From positions 1 to 21,924 of IMG/VR virus record IMGVR_UViG_2609459833_000005: 21,924 nucleotides of DNA; one strand, written 5' to 3'. Under the pieces are notes generated by a model. The model had not been told where the DNA came from, did no database searches, and was given only the letters and a program-made list of their open reading frames with translations. A program made the translations under genes and the position numbers. Shown piece after piece: positions 825-13,343 of the stretch; position 1 is the first letter of the stretch, and each line of letters begins with the position of its first letter. Source of the DNA: a virus. Lineage: Duplodnaviria; Heunggongvirae; Uroviricota; Caudoviricetes.

Positions 825-1871
825 TTAACGTCCTGCTTTCAGCTTCTGATAATACTCTTCATAAATGCTGCTGGCTGCGCCAACGTCATTCTGCCATTCG
901 CCATTTTTAATGGTTTCAGCATCCGGGTAGAGTGTTTTATCGTTCGCCACTTCTGGACTTAACAGCTTACGCGCCGCAAGGTTTGGCGTTGGATAACCGA
1001 TAGTTTCAGCAACCTGTTTTGCCACATCCGGGCGCAGCAGGAAGTTGATCAATTTCAGCGCGCCTTCTTTGTTTTTGGCATTTGCCGGGATCGCCAGGCT
1101 GTCCATCCAGAAAATGCCGCCTTCTTTCGGCCACACCACGTCAATTGGCGTACCCGCCTGGCGTGCAACGAAAGCAGAACCGTTCCAGATCATGCCGAGG
1201 TTAACTTCGCCTTCCATGTACGGGTTCGCCGGGTTATCGGAGTTAAAGGCTGCCACGTTTGGCATCAGTTTTTTCAGCTCGTTATATGCAGCTTCAATCT
1301 CTTTCGGATCGGTGGTGTTACCGGAGTAGCCCAGCTTACGCAGCGCCATCTGGAACACTTCACGGGCATCGTCGGTCAACAGCAGGCTGCCTTTGTACTC
1401 TGGCTTCCACAGATCGGCCCAGCTGGTGACAGATTTCGGATCCACCGCATCACCGTTAACACCAATCGCCGTCGCACCCCAGATATACGGAATGGAGTAG
1501 TCGTTATTCGGGTCAAAAGGCTTGTTGAGCATGTCTGGATCGAGATTGCTGAAGTTTGTTAACTTCGACTTGTCGATCTTCTGGATCATCCCTTCTTTAC
1601 GCATTTTATCAACGTAATAGGTTGAAGGAACCACCAGATCATAGGCACCGTCTTTGTATGTTTTCAGCTTGGCGTACATGGTTTCGTTCGACTCGTAAGT
1701 CGAATAGATAACCTTAATACCGGTTTCTTTGGTGAACTGTTCAAGCAGTCCTGGCGGCACGTACTCGGTCCAGTTGTAGAAATACAGCGTGTTGTTGTCA
1801 TCGGCGTGAGCGGCGCTCATGCCCAGTGCCAGAGCCCCCGCCGCGAGCAGGTGGCGTGACCATTTTTTCAT
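825..1871 (-). CDS. potD: Spermidine/putrescine ABC transporter periplasmic substrate-binding protein PotD
   Basis: 348-aa ORF with signal peptide MKKWSRHLLAAGALALGMSAAHA and the recognisable PotD sequence; start overlaps the potC stop. Confidence 0.95.
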   Translation of the reverse strand: MKKWSRHLLAAGALALGMSAAHADDNNTLYFYNWTEYVPPGLLEQFTKETGIKVIYSTYESNETMYAKLKTYKDGAYDLVVPSTYYVDKMRKEGMIQKIDKSKLTNFSNLDPDMLNKPFDPNNDYSIPYIWGATAIGVNGDAVDPKSVTSWADLWKPEYKGSLLLTDDAREVFQMALRKLGYSGNTTDPKEIEAAYNELKKLMPNVAAFNSDNPANPYMEGEVNLGMIWNGSAFVARQAGTPIDVVWPKEGGIFWMDSLAIPANAKNKEGALKLINFLLRPDVAKQVAETIGYPTPNLAARKLLSPEVANDKTLYPDAETIKNGEWQNDVGAASSIYEEYYQKLKAGR

Positions 1872-2662
1872 TTAACGTCCCCTGTGTTACCTTTCGTTTT
1901 ATCACGAGCAATAAGCTGGCTGGCAATAACCATCACCAGCGACAGCACCAGTAATATGGTTGCCAGCGCGTTAACTTCCGGCGATACGCCGACTTTGACC
2001 ATCGAATAAATTTTTAACGGCAGAATTTCATAACTTGGTCCGGTGACGAACGAAGAAACTACCACATCGTCCATCGACAGGGTAAAGCTTAACACCCAGC
2101 CCGCCGCCACCGCTGGCATTGCCAGTGGCAGAATGATTTTTCGCAGAATGGTAAATTCGCTGGCACCGAGATCTTTCGCCGCTTCCAGCATTCGCACGTC
2201 AAAACCTTTCAGGCGCGAATACACCGTCACCACCACAAATGGCAGGCAGAAGGTGATATGCGAGAACAGCAGCGACCAGAAGCCAAGCTGAATACCCAGC
2301 AGCATAAACAGCACCAGCAGCGAAATCGCCATCACGATATCTGGTGACATCATCACCACAAACAGCATTCCGCTAACGAACGGCTTACCACGAAAGCGAT
2401 AACGGTACAGCGCAACTGCCGTCAGTGAACCGATAAGCGTAGCAAACGTCGCCGAAAACACCGCCATTGTTAGTGAATGCTGCGCTGCCTGTAACAGGCT
2501 GTCGTTGTTCATCAGCAGGCTATACCATTTGGTGGTAAAACCCTGCCAGTTGATGCCAAAGCGCGAGCTGTTAAAGGAGTTCACAATCAAAATAATGATT
2601 GGGATATACAGGTACGCGTAGATAGCGGTCATAAAACCGCCGCGAAGCAGTCGACCGATCAT
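1868..2662 (-). CDS. potC: Spermidine/putrescine ABC transporter permease PotC
   Basis: 264-aa polytopic membrane protein MIGRLLRGGFMTAIYAYLYIPIIILIVNSF...; ABC permease EAA-like loop (EAAKDLGAS). Confidence 0.95.
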   Translation of the reverse strand: MIGRLLRGGFMTAIYAYLYIPIIILIVNSFNSSRFGINWQGFTTKWYSLLMNNDSLLQAAQHSLTMAVFSATFATLIGSLTAVALYRYRFRGKPFVSGMLFVVMMSPDIVMAISLLVLFMLLGIQLGFWSLLFSHITFCLPFVVVTVYSRLKGFDVRMLEAAKDLGASEFTILRKIILPLAMPAVAAGWVLSFTLSMDDVVVSSFVTGPSYEILPLKIYSMVKVGVSPEVNALATILLVLSLVMVIASQLIARDKTKGNTGDVK

Positions 2663-2828
2663 TCGAGTTCCACCTTCTTATTCATAAGGTGGAGCACTTT
2701 CAGGATTTTGAATTTATTCAATTTTTTCCTTTCTCCAAAATCTCTCCAAAACTTTTCCCCAAAACAAGGCCACGCATTTTACAACACTTTTTTCCTGAGA
2801 TGGTGACGGATATTCCATATGGTGTTTG
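2663..2828. other. Prophage left attachment region (attL) between potC start and integrase 3' end; site of potB displacement
   Basis: potB, which should lie directly upstream of potC, is missing; phage int begins here. Region holds direct repeats tctccaaaa (2732-2740, 2743-2751) and ccccaaaa (2757-2764) and an inverted repeat ccacctt...aaggtgg (2671-2693). Exact core not determinable without attR. Confidence 0.5.
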
Positions 2829-3947
2829 TCAAATAACCAACTTAACCCATTCCTGACCTCGAGTATCGTTATAGCGATCGGTGGTAGCCTGGACTTTATG
2901 TCCCAGTAATGTTTTTGTATCGACACCCTGTGCGCGGTACAACCGTTCTGACAGGGAGCGTTGTTCATGAAATGTTGGCGGTGTTTTTCCTGCTGGTGGA
3001 ATTATTCCAGCCAGATCTCGCGCTTTGGCGAAGTAATCGCTCAGGTTGTCTTTACTCATCGGTTTTGGTTGTTTCTGGTGCCTACTATGGATTAGGTATG
3101 GACTCAACATTCTGTCCCTGCATCCATCAATAACTTCTTTTAACGATACCCCAATTTCATCGCATCGTAGCGTAAGAGGTAAGGCCAGACGCATTCCGGT
3201 TTTTCCTTGGGTTATATGTAGATGTCCATTCCATACATCTGAAAAACGCATGTGGCAAATGTCATCACGGCGCTGACCAGTAACAATCGCAAGAAGCATT
3301 GCGTTACGGATAAAGTGTTTTTCTGGCGTTGCATTATAAATTTTTTGCCAGTCTTCCAGGGTGAGTCTGGATCTGGTCACTTTAGGGATCGGTTTACGGG
3401 TAGCCTCCGGAGGATTCCATCCAGGAGGAACTTCTCCCGCATGCTGTGCTTCTTTATAAATATCAACCCATAATCCGCGATTTACTCTTGCTGTGCTGAC
3501 CATGTCTTTATCCATCCACTCGTCCAGTATTAATGCAAAGTCTCTTACCTCCAGTTCTTTCAATGGGTGGTTTCCCAGGCGGGAAACCAGGTATGCAGCC
3601 ATTCGCACTTTTTCTTTGTGGGTTGTAGCTGCAATGTCTCCATTTTTCAGTCGCGAATCCTGTATTTTCAGATATCGATCAACCCATGCCTTTAATCTGA
3701 TACCCCGACGTTTTGTTGCTGATGGACTTTCATCAATTTTGCGCATGAAATATTCTGCTTCTGCTGCAGCTATTCGCTGATTGGCTGTTGCAGCGATTTT
3801 TTCTGCCTTGACTTTGTCTGTCCCAAGTCCGTGAAATTTTCCAGTCACAGGATTTTTATACTGGTAGTAAACCTTGCCAGTTCTGCGATCAAACTTTTCG
3901 TAAAGAGCTGCTACGTCAGTACTGTTTTTTCGTGGCCTCGGTGACAT
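2829..3947 (-). CDS. int: Phage integrase, tyrosine recombinase
   Basis: 372-aa ORF adjacent to att; C-terminal catalytic-type residues (…GQRRDDICHMRF…, …LLGHKVQATTDRYNDTRG…) typical of lambda-family integrases. Confidence 0.9.
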   Translation of the reverse strand: MSPRPRKNSTDVAALYEKFDRRTGKVYYQYKNPVTGKFHGLGTDKVKAEKIAATANQRIAAAEAEYFMRKIDESPSATKRRGIRLKAWVDRYLKIQDSRLKNGDIAATTHKEKVRMAAYLVSRLGNHPLKELEVRDFALILDEWMDKDMVSTARVNRGLWVDIYKEAQHAGEVPPGWNPPEATRKPIPKVTRSRLTLEDWQKIYNATPEKHFIRNAMLLAIVTGQRRDDICHMRFSDVWNGHLHITQGKTGMRLALPLTLRCDEIGVSLKEVIDGCRDRMLSPYLIHSRHQKQPKPMSKDNLSDYFAKARDLAGIIPPAGKTPPTFHEQRSLSERLYRAQGVDTKTLLGHKVQATTDRYNDTRGQEWVKLVI

Positions 3948-6685: not shown

Positions 6686-6777
6686 TGATAAACCTCATTA
6701 CAGATTTAAGGGTGAACAAATCCCTGCCATTGCTGGCATTTTTAATCCGTTGGTATGGTGTTAATATGGCTGGAGGG

Positions 6778-6966
6778 TTATCCAGCCGGTGTTTCGTTAT
6801 TCAGGTACAGCGATACTTTTTTTACCGGGAGGCATTCACCAGAAATTTTTTGCTCGTCTCTTGCCTGGAGGCAGGATTCTTTACTGGCATAAATTCCGGT
6901 AATCACATTCTGTGATTCACCCGTTATAAGAAAAACCGTCATCATCAGTGCAAATGCTGAAGTCAT
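6778..6966 (-). CDS. Small hypothetical protein, positional analogue of Qin YdfD
   Basis: 62-aa ORF overlapping the dicB-like stop (ATGA overlap); hydrophobic N-terminus MTSAFALMMTVFLITG. Assignment by synteny only. Confidence 0.4.
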   Translation of the reverse strand: MTSAFALMMTVFLITGESQNVITGIYASKESCLQARDEQKISGECLPVKKVSLYLNNETPAG

Positions 6967-7850: not shown

Positions 7851-8297
7851 ATGGACCGGGATGATATTCTTGACAGGGTTTTATATGGTTATTTTCTTGA
7901 ACAACTATTCTCTGTAGCGACTGGTCGTCTCGATAAACTTTTCTCAGTGGTGAGTATTATCCTCGGTTCATCTGTCATTGGTGGATTTATTCCTGAAGTT
8001 TCTGGAGTTCTCATTGTTGTGATAGCAACCGTTCAAACGATTTACGGATTCGGACAAAAGTCAGGTAACGCAATGAGAAAATCCGCAGAATATCTGCAGC
8101 TTTATGATGATGCAGAAAAATATTCCGATTCGGAATTGAAAATGCAGTTAAAGCTCCTGGAAAAAACAGATGATAATATTTGGTCGTCGCTTAAAGATAT
8201 CGCAATCTTAAAAACCCAGATCAAAATAGGAATCTCCGTAGAACAACAAGAGAAACTGTCTGCAAAATCCAAATTGATGCGATTCCTTTGTGGTTAG
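7851..8297 (+). CDS. Hypothetical two-transmembrane-helix membrane protein (candidate superinfection-exclusion or abortive-infection moron)
   Basis: 148-aa ORF in AT-rich DNA; SD aggtga 7 nt upstream; two adjacent hydrophobic helices (LFSVVSIILGSSVIGGFIPEV, SGVLIVVIATVQTIYGFG) then a charged helical C-terminal domain. Opposite strand to all flanking early genes. Confidence 0.7.
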   Translation: MDRDDILDRVLYGYFLEQLFSVATGRLDKLFSVVSIILGSSVIGGFIPEVSGVLIVVIATVQTIYGFGQKSGNAMRKSAEYLQLYDDAEKYSDSELKMQLKLLEKTDDNIWSSLKDIAILKTQIKIGISVEQQEKLSAKSKLMRFLCG

Positions 8298-8395: not shown

Positions 8396-8635
8396 TCAGT
8401 CAGAGTTTCTTGCTAACCAGCGACGCGCGCCAGCTTCCGTTTTAAACGTTTTGCTTCTGGTATACGTCATCGCGGTAAACGTGCCGTCCAGGTTGGGGAA
8501 TACTCCACATACCAGAGATTCGTTGTTGCCAAGCTCGATAGTATCCATGCTGACCTCATTTCCCCTTAACGCCGGGGTAGCGGAACTAAAAACCTGCTGC
8601 GCTGTTATACAAAGTGTTCCCGCCGTCATGTTCAT
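8396..8635 (-). CDS. Hypothetical early protein, first ORF of the leftward operon
   Basis: 79-aa ORF directly downstream of the leftward operator/promoter region; basic C-terminus TRSKTFKTEAGARRWLARNSD. Overlapping plus-strand ORF 8328-8657 judged less protein-like. Confidence 0.45.
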   Translation of the reverse strand: MNMTAGTLCITAQQVFSSATPALRGNEVSMDTIELGNNESLVCGVFPNLDGTFTAMTYTRSKTFKTEAGARRWLARNSD

Positions 8636-8728
8636 ACGCCTCGGGCTGGCTACTTAACCCCTGACCACTGCCGGGTAACTCGAAGTATTGCCCTGCATTC
8701 TGTGGGGAGGGTGGGTGATGAATAAACA

Positions 8729-8768
8729 ATAGCACTGCTATTTTATTCTGTTAAATAGTAATGCTATT
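8729..8768 (-). promoter_or_regulatory. Leftward early promoter with two repressor operators (OL-like)
   Basis: 15-bp palindromes AATAGCACTGCTATT (8729-8743) and AATAGTAATGCTATT (8754-8768), centres 25 bp apart. On the minus strand these overlap a -35-like TTTAAC and -10-like TATTGT reading toward 8635. Confidence 0.65.
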
Positions 8769-8784
8769 GTTTTTTGGAGGTAAG

Positions 8785-8807
8785 AAAAAAAAACCACCCG
8801 AAGGTGG
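8785..8807 (-). terminator. Rho-independent terminator after parE
   Basis: Hairpin ccacc-cgaa-ggtgg (8794-8807) followed on the minus strand by a 9-U run (8785-8793). Confidence 0.75.
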
Positions 8808-8823
8808 TTGTTGGTAGGAATGA

Positions 8824-9114
8824 TTAACAGCTTTTGTTTGGATACTGCCTTCGTGAGTGAACTACATTTACGATCTCGATGTTAGATGCTGTTACTCGGT
8901 AAAGTATTATGTAGTTAGGATGGGTCACTATCTCACGAAGGCCTAGAGCTCTTTCGCTTGGTGGATACAGGTAAGGGTGTTCAGTAAGTGACAAAACTGA
9001 TGTTTCAATGCGTATTTTTAGTCTACGTGCAGCGGGAGGGTTTTCCTTGGCAATATAGGCTACGATCTGACGCAAATCATCACGCGCAGAAGGTAGCCAT
9101 AAAATGGGCAGCAT
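8824..9114 (-). CDS. parE: ParE/RelE-superfamily type II toxin
   Basis: 96-aa ORF with ParE-like motifs (ARDDLRQIVAYIAKENPPAARRL, YIILYRV, IEIVNVVHSRR); start overlaps the stop of the upstream 63-aa ORF. Confidence 0.8.
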   Translation of the reverse strand: MLPILWLPSARDDLRQIVAYIAKENPPAARRLKIRIETSVLSLTEHPYLYPPSERALGLREIVTHPNYIILYRVTASNIEIVNVVHSRRQYPNKSC

Positions 9115-9305
9115 TACTCACTCCTGTTCGTCGAAGCTATTTGCGCAATAAGGTTTTCCATTTCAGCCATTACTTCGTCATGCGGAATTGCAGGACGGGG
9201 GTCTGCGAGGCTTGCTGCCACTTTGGTGCGTAACCATTCGTTATAGCTGTTTTCTTGTTCGATTGTTTCAAATTCTGAAATTATCGGGGAAAGGACTGTA
9301 CTCAT
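9114..9305 (-). CDS. Small antitoxin partner of ParE (PaaA-like, 63 aa)
   Basis: 63-aa acidic ORF with strong SD gaggagg 8 nt upstream; translationally coupled to parE. Size and context match the PaaA antitoxins of three-component PaaR-PaaA-ParE systems described in E. coli O157 prophages; family assignment from memory. Confidence 0.6.
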   Translation of the reverse strand: MSTVLSPIISEFETIEQENSYNEWLRTKVAASLADPRPAIPHDEVMAEMENLIAQIASTNRSE

Positions 9306-9322
9306 GTTCTAACCTCCTCAGA

Positions 9323-9823
9323 TTAGGCGCGAAGACCTTTTTGCGCCTCTAGCCACCGCGCAACGGTTTCTTCAATTGATTCTTTTTTCTCCTTCATTTC
9401 CTTAAGCATTTTCTCTTTGTCTTCTTTTGGGAAAGCCCTGAACGTCTGGATCAAATCTCGCTCTATAGGTTCTATATTAAACGGAAGTTCGTTTTCCGAT
9501 TGTTCCATCTCTGCGGGTAAAGCGACAACATTATCCTGCTGCAGTTCTTGGGGGTACATCCTTACAATTCGTAACAAGTCTGCCATATCTGGTCTAATTG
9601 ACTCAGGCGGAACTTGTAGCAACCCAGCGAACTTGATAACAGCCTCTAGATTTAAAGGTGTCTGACCATTTAGATAATGGCTTACTGCCCCTTGTGTCGA
9701 AAAACCCAGAATTTCTGCCGCACGCTCTTGGGTTAACCCAAGTTGAGTTTTTTTCGTCGTCCAGATTTCTTTCAGTCTCTGGGCGGCTTGCAGGTCGATC
9801 TCTGACAGGGGTTTTCTTTTCAT
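9323..9823 (-). CDS. Prophage repressor / transcriptional regulator, HTH XRE-family (PaaR- or DicA-like), no autocleavage domain
   Basis: 166-aa ORF; N-terminal HTH (LGLTQERAAEILGFSTQGAVSHYLNG); C-terminus charged and helical with no S24 peptidase Ser/Lys or Ala-Gly motifs; divergent from the cro-like gene across an operator-bearing intergenic region. Confidence 0.75.
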   Translation of the reverse strand: MKRKPLSEIDLQAAQRLKEIWTTKKTQLGLTQERAAEILGFSTQGAVSHYLNGQTPLNLEAVIKFAGLLQVPPESIRPDMADLLRIVRMYPQELQQDNVVALPAEMEQSENELPFNIEPIERDLIQTFRAFPKEDKEKMLKEMKEKKESIEETVARWLEAQKGLRA

Positions 9824-9858
9824 ACCTTCAATTCTAATAAGATTATTAATCTCTTTGA

Positions 9859-9898
9859 AATAGCAGTGCTATTTACTTTTAAAAATAACAATGCTATT
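9859..9898 (+). promoter_or_regulatory. Rightward early promoter with two repressor operators (OR-like), shared with the divergent repressor promoter
   Basis: 15-bp palindromes AATAGCAGTGCTATT (9859-9873) and AATAACAATGCTATT (9884-9898), centres 25 bp apart, overlapping -35-like TTTACT (9872-9877) and -10-like TATTAA (9895-9900); same architecture as the OL region. Confidence 0.7.
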
Positions 9899-9930
9899 AA
9901 TATTCATGGTCACATAACATGAGGTGAACA

Positions 9931-10194
9931 ATGAATCTTGGAGAATATTTGCATCATTCCCGTATAACCCAGAAAGATTTTGCTGAAATTGTTGGGGTAA
10001 CCCAAGGGATGGTAAGCCATGTTATTACTGGACGGGCGAAACTTACGGGGGGGAAAGTTTTACGCTGGTGTGAAGCAACAGGGTGGGTAGTGACCCCGCA
10101 CGAGATTGATAGCAGTACTTACCCCAACCCAACCGATGGCATACCTGTTGACTATCAGGCTAACACACAACCCGCGCTGGGAGTTGATTCATGA
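9931..10194 (+). CDS. Cro-like HTH regulator
   Basis: 87-aa ORF with HTH (ITQKDFAEIVGVTQGMVSHVITG), first gene transcribed rightward from the operator region; SD gaggtga upstream. Confidence 0.75.
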   Translation: MNLGEYLHHSRITQKDFAEIVGVTQGMVSHVITGRAKLTGGKVLRWCEATGWVVTPHEIDSSTYPNPTDGIPVDYQANTQPALGVDS

Positions 10195-10616
10195 AAATCA
10201 AGCATGAACACATCCGCATGGCGATGAATGTCTGGGCGCATCCGGACGGCGAAAAAGTACCGGCTGCGAAAATTACCAAAGCGTATTTCGAGCTGGGAAT
10301 GACGTTCCCGGAACTGTATGACGACAGCCATCCGGAAGCCCTGGCCCGTAATACCCAGAAAATTTTCCGTTGGCTGGATAAAGACACCCCTGATGCTGTT
10401 GAAAAAATGCAGGCTCTGTTACCGGCGATCGAAAAGGCGATGCCGCCTTTGCTGGTGGCCCGTATGCGCAGTCACAGCTCTGAATATTACCGTGAGATCG
10501 TCGAACGGAGGGATCGGCTGGGGAAAGATGTGGATGATTTTGTCGCAGCGGCGATCGCCTGGGGCACCCTGACTAACAGTGGTGGTCAGCCTGGTAATGC
10601 TGTTGTCGTGCATTGA
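10191..10616 (+). CDS. YdaT-like (CII-like) protein
   Basis: 141-aa ORF beginning MKIKHEHI and ending ...AVVVH, resembling remembered Rac YdaT; located directly after cro as in Rac (racR-ydaS-ydaT). Confidence 0.5.
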   Translation: MKIKHEHIRMAMNVWAHPDGEKVPAAKITKAYFELGMTFPELYDDSHPEALARNTQKIFRWLDKDTPDAVEKMQALLPAIEKAMPPLLVARMRSHSSEYYREIVERRDRLGKDVDDFVAAAIAWGTLTNSGGQPGNAVVVH

Positions 10617-12935: not shown

Positions 12936-12950
12936 TTGCCGGAGGCGCTT

Positions 12951-13343
12951 ATGGCAAAAGTATTTACACCAGAAGAGCGGGAAGAAGTGAAGGCGCGCAT
13001 TGTGGAATTCGTGCGCCTGAGCGGACGAGAAACTTTTCGACAACTGGCAGATAAAACGGGTGTCAGTAAGACCGCTATTCGTCGTTTATCTGGTGCGCTT
13101 GCGGCCAGTGGTGATGTCTGGCTCTCTGGTTGCGGGGTATTTCCATCAGAGCAGGCGTATCGCGTATGGCGTAAGACACCGGAGAAGGCTGCTGACCCGA
13201 CACTGATTCGAAAGTTACCTGACGGAGAAATACGTCGTTACAACAGACGGCAGAACATAATTTGTCGTGAGAGCAGGAGGAGCGAAGTTATGCAGCGTGT
13301 GCTGGCGTTCTATCGGGGAAACTTTCAGGAGGTGATGGAGTGA
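12951..13343 (+). CDS. Hypothetical protein with putative HTH
   Basis: ATG at 12951 with SD ggagg 5 nt upstream (the ORF track's 12936 start is a TTG); DNA-binding-like segment FRQLADKTGVSKTAIRRLSG. Confidence 0.5.
   Translation: MAKVFTPEEREEVKARIVEFVRLSGRETFRQLADKTGVSKTAIRRLSGALAASGDVWLSGCGVFPSEQAYRVWRKTPEKAADPTLIRKLPDGEIRRYNRRQNIICRESRRSEVMQRVLAFYRGNFQEVME

Follow-up and report, generated by a model that had tools for sequence, protein, structure and literature searches.

A probable heteroimmune PaaR-PaaA-ParE-type immunity module in an Escherichia coli lambdoid prophage

The PaaR-PaaA-ParE arrangement, in which a phage repressor gene is followed by a toxin-antitoxin pair, is already known, having been described and tested in prophage CP-933P of Escherichia coli O157:H7. 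The paaR2-paaA2-parE2 locus of this prophage has been dissected by experiment (Hallez 2010; Jurenas 2021, PMC8630535; Prolic-Kalinsek 2023, PMC9986795), and the work covers the OR and OL operators, the leaderless repressor mRNA, the roles of YdaS as Cro and of YdaT as CII, and addiction (PMC8630535, PMC9986795). PaaR2 is a CI analogue that binds both OR and OL, lacks a peptidase motif and does not respond to mitomycin C; its mRNA is leaderless, as documented also for cI, and the locus is addictive (PMC8630535). In the immunity region, PaaR2 replaces CI and paaA2-parE2 replaces rexA-rexB (PMC9986795). The route of induction and a possible role of the pair in exclusion are questions already raised in the literature.

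The DNA analyzed here is a stretch of 21,924 nucleotides (21.9 kb, hereafter the window), covering the left ~19 kb of a prophage. The region considered is very probably (estimated probability about 0.85) the immunity module of an E. coli lambdoid prophage located beside potC, and a heteroimmune member of the PaaR-PaaA-ParE three-component toxin-antitoxin family. A preliminary description of this DNA had treated the union of immunity and toxin-antitoxin functions as an open curiosity; the gene arrangement stands, but not its openness, since the same fusion has been published for paaR2-paaA2-parE2 of CP-933P. What appears to be novel with respect to O157:H7, judging from sequence, is another DNA-binding head on the repressor, with its own operators and a matching head on the Cro-like protein. 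Identical proteins are annotated in dozens of E. coli genomes, O104:H4 among them. In the phage collection searched, the immunity/toxin-antitoxin region occurred in no sequenced phage, the match being restricted to the ydaT-to-O part.

The PaaR-type repressor (9323..9823, minus strand, 166 aa) was recognized from the list of open reading frames, Pfam HTH_3, PDB matches and AlphaFold2/Foldseek comparisons. It does lie at the cI position, as first proposed, between an OR-like region with divergent cro-like ydaS and cII-like ydaT and an OL/PL-like region. Three parts can be distinguished, namely a lambda-cI-like N-terminal DNA-binding domain (residues 1-90), a disordered linker (91-112) and a two-helix C-terminal module of PaaR/DicA type (119-165). 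The first of these matches HTH_3 (Pfam, E=1.7e-9) and the lambda cI N-terminal domain 1lmb (phmmer against PDB, E=1.6e-9), and the AlphaFold2 model resembles the latter in Foldseek with TMt of 0.81-0.94, rmsd of 1.1-1.5 Å and 34-37% identity; sequence and model alike point to a lambda-repressor-type HTH domain. Foldseek matches of the model were confined to this domain, the C-terminal module being unmatched, and sequence searches of the PDB copy, started from this repressor and from the O157 type-1 PaaR, recovered no PaaR chain. Peptidase_S24 was found in the repressor by none of Pfam (PF00717), NCBIfam or PHROG. Also, the model is all-helical and carries ~55 residues past the linker, forming two helices only rather than an S24 C-terminal domain, which agrees with the earlier claim that a RecA-stimulated self-cleavage domain is lacking. 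A distant relative of 245 aa (P0033) bears PF00717 behind the same type of head, indicating that the cI-like head occurs with either tail.

Homology between this repressor and PaaR appears to be partial, at the level of domains, and to involve the C-terminal module only. The C-terminal 64 aa share 56% identity with the O157 type-1 PaaR and the module shares 48% identity across 44 aa with PaaR2, while the DNA-binding domain gives no significant alignment to either protein. With this domain unrelated in sequence to those of PaaR1 and PaaR2, regulatory detail (operator number and hierarchy, autoactivation) is transferred here by analogy. Membership in the DicA family was rejected, as the DicA model (NCBIfam NF007257) matches over positions 75-130 of 135 only, with E=9.8e-7 and 28.7 bits against a cut-off of 101. 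Matches of the repressor to the MqsA antitoxin, Tad5 (PF25190, E=0.008, residues 106-160), BetR and RstR also fell below their cut-offs, and were attributed to generic HTH or charged-helix similarity. Of the comparisons proposed at the outset, those with PaaA2 and ParE2 gave clear matches, that with PaaR2 was limited to the C-terminal module and that with DicA remained below cut-off; the PaaR-PaaA-ParE-like reading is nonetheless well grounded in the PaaA and ParE family matches and in a C-terminal module common to PaaR1 and PaaR2.

Downstream of the repressor gene, on the same strand, is a gap of exactly 17 nt (9306..9322, minus strand), as had been reported, which reads TCTGAGGAGGTTAGAAC on the coding strand and contains the strong Shine-Dalgarno sequence GAGGAGG in front of paaA. 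No promoter-like or terminator-like site was predicted within the gap by the promoter and terminator scan. The 63-aa PaaA-family antitoxin that follows (9114..9305, minus strand) is acidic, as noted before (pI 4.4; 11 D+E against 4 K+R), has no DNA-binding domain, and matches Pfam PaaA2 (E=2.9e-22, 78.8 bits against a cut-off of 27), NCBIfam NF050103 (1.6e-26) and the PDB PaaA2 chain 3zbe_A (E=1.7e-22). The ParE-family toxin (8824..9114, minus strand) is a basic protein of 96 aa (pI 9.7), matching Pfam ParE_toxin (E=4e-18, 66 bits against a cut-off of 23) and the PDB ParE2 chain 5cw7_B (E=5.7e-35). An identity as RelE-type mRNA interferase was discarded, given that TIGR02385 (RelE/StbE) reaches 26.9 bits, short of its cut-off of 27.9, and ParE is much stronger. 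The PaaA, ParE and HTH family assignments are far beyond chance. Stop of paaA and start of parE overlap in TAATG, with base 9114 common to both, in line with the translational coupling claimed earlier.

The operon probably ends at an intrinsic terminator (8782..8809, minus strand) with a 7-bp stem, a TTCG loop and a T9 tail (AACCACC-TTCG-GGTGGTT at 8809..8792, followed by T9). Its folding energy is -10.4 kcal/mol (z = -3.4), an equally good fold arising in none of 200 shuffles, and it is kept in the diverged variants L090 and L091; the preliminary description was right to call it strong. With all three genes on one strand, a gap holding a Shine-Dalgarno sequence only and a single terminator past parE, repressor, paaA and parE are likely to form one transcription unit.

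The palindrome AATAGCAnTGCTATT (AATAG-N5-CTATT) occurs four times in the window, only at OR and OL, where ~1.0 match is expected by chance and four were reached in one of 100 shuffles. In OR, the predicted operator AATAGCAGTGCTATT (9859..9873), found by motif search and with half-sites kept in variants, adjoins the -35 of a PRM-like promoter in an OR2-like position, its center ~43 bp upstream of the repressor ATG. The second one, AATAACAATGCTATT (9884..9898), also predicted by motif search, overlaps the spacer and -10 of a PR-like promoter. A weak third OR site, AATAAGATTATTAAT (9834..9848), is a speculative candidate picked by eye; it keeps the 25-bp register of the other two, overlaps the PRM-like -10 and is kept in variants, but its five mismatches to the consensus kept it out of the motif search result. 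Motif search and comparison of variants predict two further operators in OL, AATAGCACTGCTATT (8728..8742) and AATAGTAATGCTATT (8754..8768). Outer operator half-sites are conserved among variants whose repressors are 78-89% identical.

The promoter scan places the PRM-like promoter, TTCAAA-17-TAGAAT, at 9831..9859 (minus strand). Since its -10 ends 7 nt before the A of the ATG, the repressor mRNA is predicted to be leaderless. For ydaS-ydaT, a putative PR-like promoter (TTTACT-17-TATTAA; 9872..9900, plus strand) was read by eye; it matches 8 of 12 positions and lies below the threshold of the scan. The predicted PL-like leftward promoter (TTAACA-17-TG-TATTGT; 8726..8754, minus strand) overlaps with both OL operators and is directed into the ydfA (DUF1391)/dicB region, where a DUF1391 protein is recognized downstream by Pfam; its analogue in CP-933P is PL933P (PMC8630535).

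On the rightward side, the predicted Cro analogue is a YdaS-like HTH protein of 87 aa (9931..10194, plus strand; Pfam HTH_3 4.9e-6, phrog_35), with an N-terminal HTH half that is immunity-specific and a C-terminal half common to the O157 YdaS. The CII analogue belongs to the YdaT family (10191..10616, plus strand, 141 aa; Pfam YdaT_toxin 2.8e-10; phrog_163, CII-like activator, 3e-46) and is 80% identical to the O157 YdaT. A perfect YdaT operator, TTGATTCATGAAAATCAA (10184..10201), is predicted by motif search at the ydaS/ydaT junction as an OM site of the PRE region; it is the sole zero-mismatch TTGATTN6AATCAA in the window, and both motif and position are as determined for the YdaT of CP-933P (PMC9986795). 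The lambdoid immunity context known from CP-933P is therefore present, with divergent ydaS-ydaT, operators common to OR and OL and a YdaT site (PMC8630535, PMC9986795).

By analogy with these systems, the repressor would bind AATAG-N5-CTATT at OR and OL through its lambda-cI-like domain and oligomerize through the short helical C-terminal module of PaaR/DicA type. In so doing it may shut both the rightward promoter (ydaS, ydaT and replication genes) and the leftward promoter (ydfA/dicB region), and autoregulate its own, probably leaderless, transcript. From the anatomy of the sequence, paaA and parE would be passengers on this transcript, occupying the rexA-rexB slot and ending at the terminator before OL. 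At 86-88% identity to the tested paralogue, PaaA probably neutralizes ParE by direct binding, and freed ParE would poison DNA topology. YdaT, acting at TTGATT-N6-AATCAA, could provide an alternative, PRE-like expression of the operon. Partial repression by PaaA-ParE is, however, among the results of Hallez (2010) as relayed in PMC4803016, and for this reason a strictly passive role of the two genes may be an oversimplification. Addiction is the most likely function of the pair, which would stabilize the immunity region and the prophage as the CP-933P homologue does on a plasmid.

How such a prophage would switch is a separate matter. The LexA box CTGT-N8-ACAG does not occur in the window, and a scan of 20 further ORFs in it, of which 19 are prophage genes, gave no domain of Ant, Rha, KilAC or BRO type. 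As the window represents the left ~19 kb of the prophage, an antirepressor may be encoded in the remainder. As the repressor has no autocleavage domain and this 22-kb window has neither a LexA box nor a recognizable antirepressor, another trigger is needed, and the pair itself might supply it. Less transcription from the repressor promoter would then let PaaA decay and free ParE to cause DNA damage and SOS, reinforcing the induction of the same or co-resident prophages, or killing cells that lose immunity. ParE2 overexpression does induce SOS, and ClpAP and ClpXP degrade PaaA2 (PMC8630535). Such a part in the lysis-lysogeny decision is nevertheless improbable, given that SOS-positive cells of CP-933P were equally rare in the two states (0.88% in ydaST-on, 0.95% in RAE2-on) and that its toxin-antitoxin operon is transcribed in both (PMC8630535), presumably via a YdaT-dependent promoter whose operator is found here too. 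ParE2 activity was detected in neither transcriptional state of CP-933P (PMC8630535). With a repressor that is presumably not RecA-cleavable, any switch would rather be thrown by bistability between repressor and Cro, or by the product of a gene lying elsewhere.

Comparison with O157:H7 distinguishes two paralogous loci. One (L003) carries the genuine ParE2/PaaA2, as confirmed by identity to PDB chains; the other (L001) is taken, by elimination and context, as the paaR1-paaA1-parE1 system assigned to CP-933M. The antitoxin and toxin described here are 86% and 88% identical, respectively, to the type-1 paralogues, and the pair is of type 1; PaaA1 and PaaA2 do not cross-neutralize, according to Hallez (2010) as summarized in PMC4803016. 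Window positions 8403-9453 and 10083-10557 align to the type-1 locus at 77% and 85%, and no DNA alignment to it was obtained for positions 9454-10082. The YdaS-like proteins are 37% identical, DNA homology resuming at 10083. This pattern points to a classical immunity swap, in which ~630 bp comprising the repressor DNA-binding domain, OR and the Cro head were apparently exchanged relative to the paralogue, and the repressor C-terminal module, paaA-parE, the terminator and ydaT apparently retained. Of 5426 complete E. coli genomes, 72 have the immunity-specific segment; these 72 are also the ones with 80% or more coverage of a 2-kb region including the toxin-antitoxin pair, this immunity type thus always occurring with the pair. 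In all, paaA-parE is carried by 841 E. coli genomes.

The swap bears on what the HTH protein is. Classical ParD-type antitoxins join a DNA-binding part and a toxin-binding part in one protein, and PaaR plus PaaA could be such an antitoxin split in two, the HTH protein being chiefly a regulator of the pair and its place in an immunity region incidental. The system was indeed first described as a three-component toxin-antitoxin system with PaaR as regulator (Hallez 2010, as cited in PMC4803016). Yet the predicted operators recur 1.1 kb away, in an OL/PL-like site, and overlap the PR-like promoter of the cro/cII analogues and replication genes. The exchange of the DNA-binding head, moreover, included OR and the head of Cro, which is the pattern of immunity swaps among lambdoid phages. 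A PaaR-type N- or C-terminal domain was found at none of 80 PaaA-ParE loci of other species (~5 kb around paaA), suggesting that the repressor is a component of the prophage and not an ancestral part of the toxin-antitoxin system, and unrelated cargo occurs behind repressors with the same C-terminal domain. A split antitoxin is hence very unlikely. Long ORFs with PaaA in other species (147-165 aa; L072-L089) were not accepted as antitoxins with an extra N-terminal domain, since Pfam finds the PaaA motif only, at the C-terminus; these ORFs are probably over-extended, because the earliest start available is the one that the ORF caller takes.

At least four head types (lambda-cI-like, 434-like, PaaR2-type and tandem double-HTH) were seen on the same tail; four loci were inspected by hand for heads, operators and junctions. 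Repressor C-terminal module, paaA-parE and terminator may be a portable unit, kept as repressor head, OR and Cro head are exchanged, with the slot behind the repressor serving as a cargo hot-spot for RexAB-like defence; we regard this as a tentative proposal, less probable than not. If true, a published hypothesis, in which the pair acts to police recombination within immunity regions, would gain support from natural variation, and conflict systems such as PaaA-ParE, HigBA and HipA_2-DUF3037 would be seen to replace one another at a hot-spot that follows lambdoid repressors lacking cleavage.

The same slot suggests a somewhat less probable role, in which PaaA-ParE serves chiefly to exclude other phages or to abort their infection, RexAB-like and expressed from the lysogenic repressor transcript, rather than as an addiction system. 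Here, as in CP-933P (PMC9986795), paaA-parE sits where rexA-rexB does, between the repressor gene and OL, and prophages with homologous repressors carry other toxin-type genes there, HigB-HigA in Salmonella and a HipA_2 kinase with DUF3037 on metagenomic contigs, suggesting a cargo hot-spot for conflict systems. On the other hand, none of the PADLOC defence models matches the repressor or either protein of the pair, the cited literature on the system mentions no phenotype of phage defence, and the phenotype tested for the CP-933P homologue is plasmid stabilization (PMC8630535). Exclusion and addiction are not mutually exclusive, and addiction remains our preferred reading.

Taken alone, the locus carries little weight, because earlier work on a close homologue already covers the system, where it lies among the immunity genes, a repressor that is not cleaved, and addiction. 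Its modest value is comparative, the PaaR family being seen as modular: the tail is conserved, whereas DNA-binding heads can be exchanged and bring matching operators, and the toxin-antitoxin pair stays linked through immunity swaps. Given that DNA and sigma-70 contacts of lambda-cI-like heads are well understood, this variant could be a convenient model for asking how cooperativity, looping and switching are achieved by a lambdoid repressor that is not cleaved and oligomerizes through a short tail.

Among known systems, DicA of the Qin prophage and RacR-type proteins are likewise short HTH repressors at the cI position without S24, but the N-terminal domain of DicA is unlike the present one and DicA is not followed by a toxin-antitoxin pair. 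The type-1 locus of O157:H7 shares the flanking ydfA/dicB/exonuclease genes and the terminator position, and differs in its repressor (133 aa, with a 434-repressor-like HTH head in place of the lambda-cI-like one) and in having other, ACAATAAAAAACTGTT-type repeats at the same two places, OR and OL. Lambda cI provides the sequence and fold homologue of the N-terminal domain, including the basic arm (MKRKPL here, KKKPL in lambda). As in cI-rexA-rexB, the repressor comes first, followed by two passenger genes and a terminator before OL, in a leftward operon divergent from cro, and the PRM-type geometry, predicted here to be leaderless, matches, with an operator abutting the -35 as OR2 does. Unlike lambda, there is no S24/RecA-dependent autocleavage domain, a type II toxin-antitoxin pair takes the place of RexAB, the unrelated YdaS and YdaT replace Cro and CII, and two clear operators per side are found instead of three. 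The paaR2-paaA2-parE2 locus of CP-933P/Sp12 has the same order and strands throughout, from OL/PL, terminator, parE, paaA and repressor to OR, ydaS, ydaT and the replication genes. Counted from alignments, ParE is ~70% identical to ParE2, and PaaA ~75% identical to PaaA2 in the first ~50 residues, the C-terminal third diverging. PaaR2 (123 aa, starting MQKKE) has an N-terminal domain unrelated in sequence to that of the 166-aa repressor, and CP-933P has GTTTAGTAA-type repeats, four of them in OR, against two AATAG-N5-CTATT operators per side here. Both repressors nonetheless lack S24, the predicted leaderless geometry is the same, and the YdaT operator motif is identical.

The three minus-strand open reading frames, the 17-nt gap, the acidic 63-aa product, the coupled toxin gene and the terminator that had been read from the sequence were all found at the positions claimed for them. 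The putative operon comprises genes for a 166-aa repressor (9823..9323), PaaA (9305..9114; 63 aa, acidic, pI 4.4) and ParE (9114..8824; 96 aa, basic, pI 9.7). The spacer between the repressor gene and paaA holds a GAGGAGG motif seven bases 5' of the paaA ATG, and paaA and parE overlap in TAATG. After parE lies an intrinsic terminator (8809..8792), made up of a G+C-rich stem of 7 bp, a TTCG loop and a T9 run, whose folding energy (-10.4 kcal/mol, z = -3.4) was equalled by none of 200 shuffles. A leftward promoter-like site (TTCAAA-17-TAGAAT), with its -35 element abutting the operator at 9859-9873, stops 7 nt short of the A in the repressor ATG; as this start codon also lacks a usable SD sequence, the repressor mRNA is predicted to be leaderless. 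A more distal leftward promoter-like site (TTAACA-17-TG-TATTGT) is covered by both distal operators.

Assignment of the 63-aa protein and the toxin to the PaaA and ParE families is confirmed by matches to Pfam PaaA2 (E=2.9e-22) and the PaaA2 chains of PDB 3zbe and 5cw7 (E=1.7e-22), and to Pfam ParE_toxin (E=4e-18) and ParE2 of PDB 5cw7 (E=5.7e-35), respectively. The repressor has an HTH_3 domain and, in agreement with the proposed lack of a RecA-cleavable domain, no Peptidase_S24 domain was found in it by domain and family profile searches. Over residues 1 to about 90 it is homologous in sequence to the N-terminal domain of lambda cI (1lmb, E=1.6e-9), the basic arm at the N-terminus included. 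An AlphaFold model built from 25 homologues (mean pLDDT 76; N-terminal domain 85-93) has five helices in the N-terminal part and, after a disordered linker (91-112), two more at the C-terminal end (119-130, 133-165), and Foldseek superimposed its N-terminal domain on lambda cI structures with an rmsd of 1.1-1.5 A, TMt up to 0.94 and 34-37% identity. The charged helical tail (residues 106-160; 9323-9505) shows a sub-threshold likeness to the Thoeris inhibitor Tad5 (PF25190, E=0.008, 16.7 bits versus a cut-off of 27), which is probably compositional.

Four copies of the 15-bp palindrome AATAGCAnTGCTATT are present in the 21.9-kb window, all of them in OR-like and OL-like places: two (9859-9873 and 9884-9898) in the 107 bp that separate the repressor gene from the divergent ydaS, and two (8728-8742 and 8754-8768) just past the terminator. 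Where the repressor is 78-89% identical (O104:H4, strain RMDEC465), the central bases of the palindrome differ; its outer half-sites AATAG...CTATT are kept, as are the promoter elements and the terminator, which supports the reading of the palindromes as operators. Rightward of the repressor gene lie genes for an 87-aa YdaS/Cro-like HTH protein and a 141-aa YdaT-family protein (PHROG 'CII-like activator', E=3e-46), followed by DnaT/O-like and P-like replication genes, a Ren-like gene, RusA and a Q-like antiterminator. Leftward of OL are ydfA (DUF1391), a large exonuclease gene, xis and int, and then host potC and potD. The operator motif TTGATT-N6-AATCAA, experimentally defined for YdaT of CP-933P (PMC9986795), has a single perfect match (10184-10201), straddling the ydaS/ydaT junction as it does in CP-933P. 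Gene neighbourhood, operators and YdaT site therefore identify a complete lambdoid prophage immunity region, in which the repressor-paaA-parE operon sits between OR and OL.

Several other features of this prophage were recorded. At its left end (1868-3947) the integrase gene (2829-3947; lambda Arm-binding type) adjoins host potC (1868-2662) and potD, which places the attachment site at the potC end of the pot operon. Between ydfA and the dicB region, a 148-aa ORF (7851-8297, plus strand) runs counter to the early-left genes driven by PL. It matches phrog_6315 (E=6e-24), a family of unknown function, and, weakly and below threshold, SLATT_4 (E=0.014), with no Pfam family found; a moron or a conflict gene is a possible identity. 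The DUF977 gene (12936-13343, plus strand; PHROG 'Ren-like exclusion protein', E=3.6e-41) follows the replication genes, like ren in lambda. Downstream of the Q-like antiterminator gene (DUF1133, 18226-18798), genes for a type II-like DNA methyltransferase (19364-20422; PADLOC MTase_II, E=4e-162) and a TerB-domain protein (20813-21316), both on the plus strand, mark another mosaic cargo site, since the nearest complete genome (L002) has different genes there. The L002 immunity region is 99.9% identical to that of the window; L002 bears an IS4 insertion (8665-10011) between the exonuclease and DUF1482/dicB genes which, judged from a coordinate offset change of ~1.4 kb, is absent from the window at ~6700-6800.

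Comparison with the two O157:H7 paralogues locates where the immunity regions diverge. The ParE and PaaA of L003 have the same sequences as the crystallised ParE2 and PaaA2, and the 123-aa regulator of this locus, starting MQKKE, is PaaR2; L001 is the other O157-type locus. Identity to L001 is 88% for ParE, 86% for PaaA, 80% for YdaT and 37% for YdaS, whereas the repressor is alignable over its last 64 residues only (56%), and with PaaR2 over its last 44 only (48%). DNA homology to L001 covers 8403-9453 and 10083-10557 with none between, the non-homologous stretch taking in OR and the heads of both repressor and Cro, and OR and OL of L001 bear other repeats, of the ACAATAAAAAACTGTT type. This is a classic lambdoid immunity swap, one of whose junctions falls in the part coding for the repressor linker.

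The repressor family is modular. The conserved tail (which includes LLQTFxAFPxEDxExMLxEMKxKKESMExTVARWLAAQK) is joined to a lambda-cI-like head in the window, a 434-like head in type 1 and the PaaR2 head, and in metagenomic proteins of 240-255 aa it follows cI-like and type-1 heads in tandem. A second kind of short helical tail is found on the same cI-like head in P0025-P0030, and a more distant form of this head, in P0033, carries an S24 peptidase tail. The slot behind the double-HTH repressor holds a HipA_2 kinase and DUF3037 in place of PaaA-ParE, and that behind the Salmonella form holds HigB-HigA; the tail thus has no specific link to PaaA-ParE, which counts against direct sensing of the toxin-antitoxin (TA) pair by the tail and favours plain genetic linkage at a hot-spot for cargo. 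This variable cargo, and the position of the pair in the rexA-rexB slot, would also suit a RexAB-like exclusion module, a role that we regard as rather unlikely; no PADLOC defence model matched PaaA, ParE or the repressor. Among the individual loci, metagenomic L005 (4001-6360; also L006, L007) encodes a 244-aa repressor with cI-like and PaaR1-like HTHs in tandem and a PaaR tail, divergent from ydaS-ydaT, and a Salmonella diarizonae prophage (L008, 4001-5339; also L009) has the same cI-like head with the other tail, then a HigB toxin and an HTH (HigA-like) antitoxin.

DNA resembling paaA-parE occurs in 841 of 5426 complete E. coli genomes and the immunity-specific 629 bp in 72; the 2-kb region including the TA pair is covered to at least 80% in the same number, so that linkage of immunity type to TA pair appears complete. 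A search of a phage collection recovered no carrier among sequenced phages. Repressor homologues occur in Escherichia, Shigella, E. albertii and Salmonella. Both PaaA and ParE ORFs were present at 64 of 80 PaaA loci of other species (Bartonella, Pseudomonas, Acidithiobacillus, sphingomonads and others) and a PaaR-type head or tail was found near none of the 80; the three-gene form is therefore a two-gene TA that lambdoid prophages of enterobacteria have captured, as proposed by Jurenas et al. (PMC8630535). Such two-gene modules, common also in acetic acid bacteria, have a PaaA without a DNA-binding domain and no PaaR-type regulator nearby; one Acidithiobacillus plasmid carries two copies.

In identity and architecture the locus is, with a probability of roughly 85%, the published CP-933P scheme moved to a new specificity. 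The repressor would act on OR and OL, its leaderless autoregulated transcript would carry paaA-parE, PaaA would neutralise ParE through binding, YdaS and YdaT would play the Cro and CII roles, and the repressor would not be RecA-cleavable. Neither a LexA box nor an antirepressor was found in the 21.9-kb window, which spans part of the prophage. What the TA pair does is less certain; addiction has been shown for the homologue, and participation in the lysis-lysogeny switch itself is improbable, being disfavoured by the CP-933P single-cell data (PMC8630535).

In CP-933P, rexA-rexB are replaced by paaA2-parE2 and CI by PaaR2 (Prolic-Kalinsek et al. 2023, PMC9986795). PaaR2 is a CI analogue translated from a leaderless mRNA, with no peptidase motif and no mitomycin C response; repeats bound by both PaaR2 and YdaS lie in the 97-bp intergenic region and at a PL/OL analogue, YdaT switches on a PRE analogue, the circuit is bistable and the paaR2-paaA2-parE2 locus is addictive (Jurenas et al. 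2021, PMC8630535). That O157:H7 has two paralogous systems, each cotranscribed, which do not neutralise one another is recorded in a review summarising Hallez 2010 (PMC4803016). The match to CP-933P bears out the preliminary description of a PaaR-PaaA-ParE-like immunity operon, an interpretation that is right yet restates published work (PMC8630535, PMC9986795). The locus is real, correctly read and ordinary: a heteroimmune variant of an experimentally characterised system.
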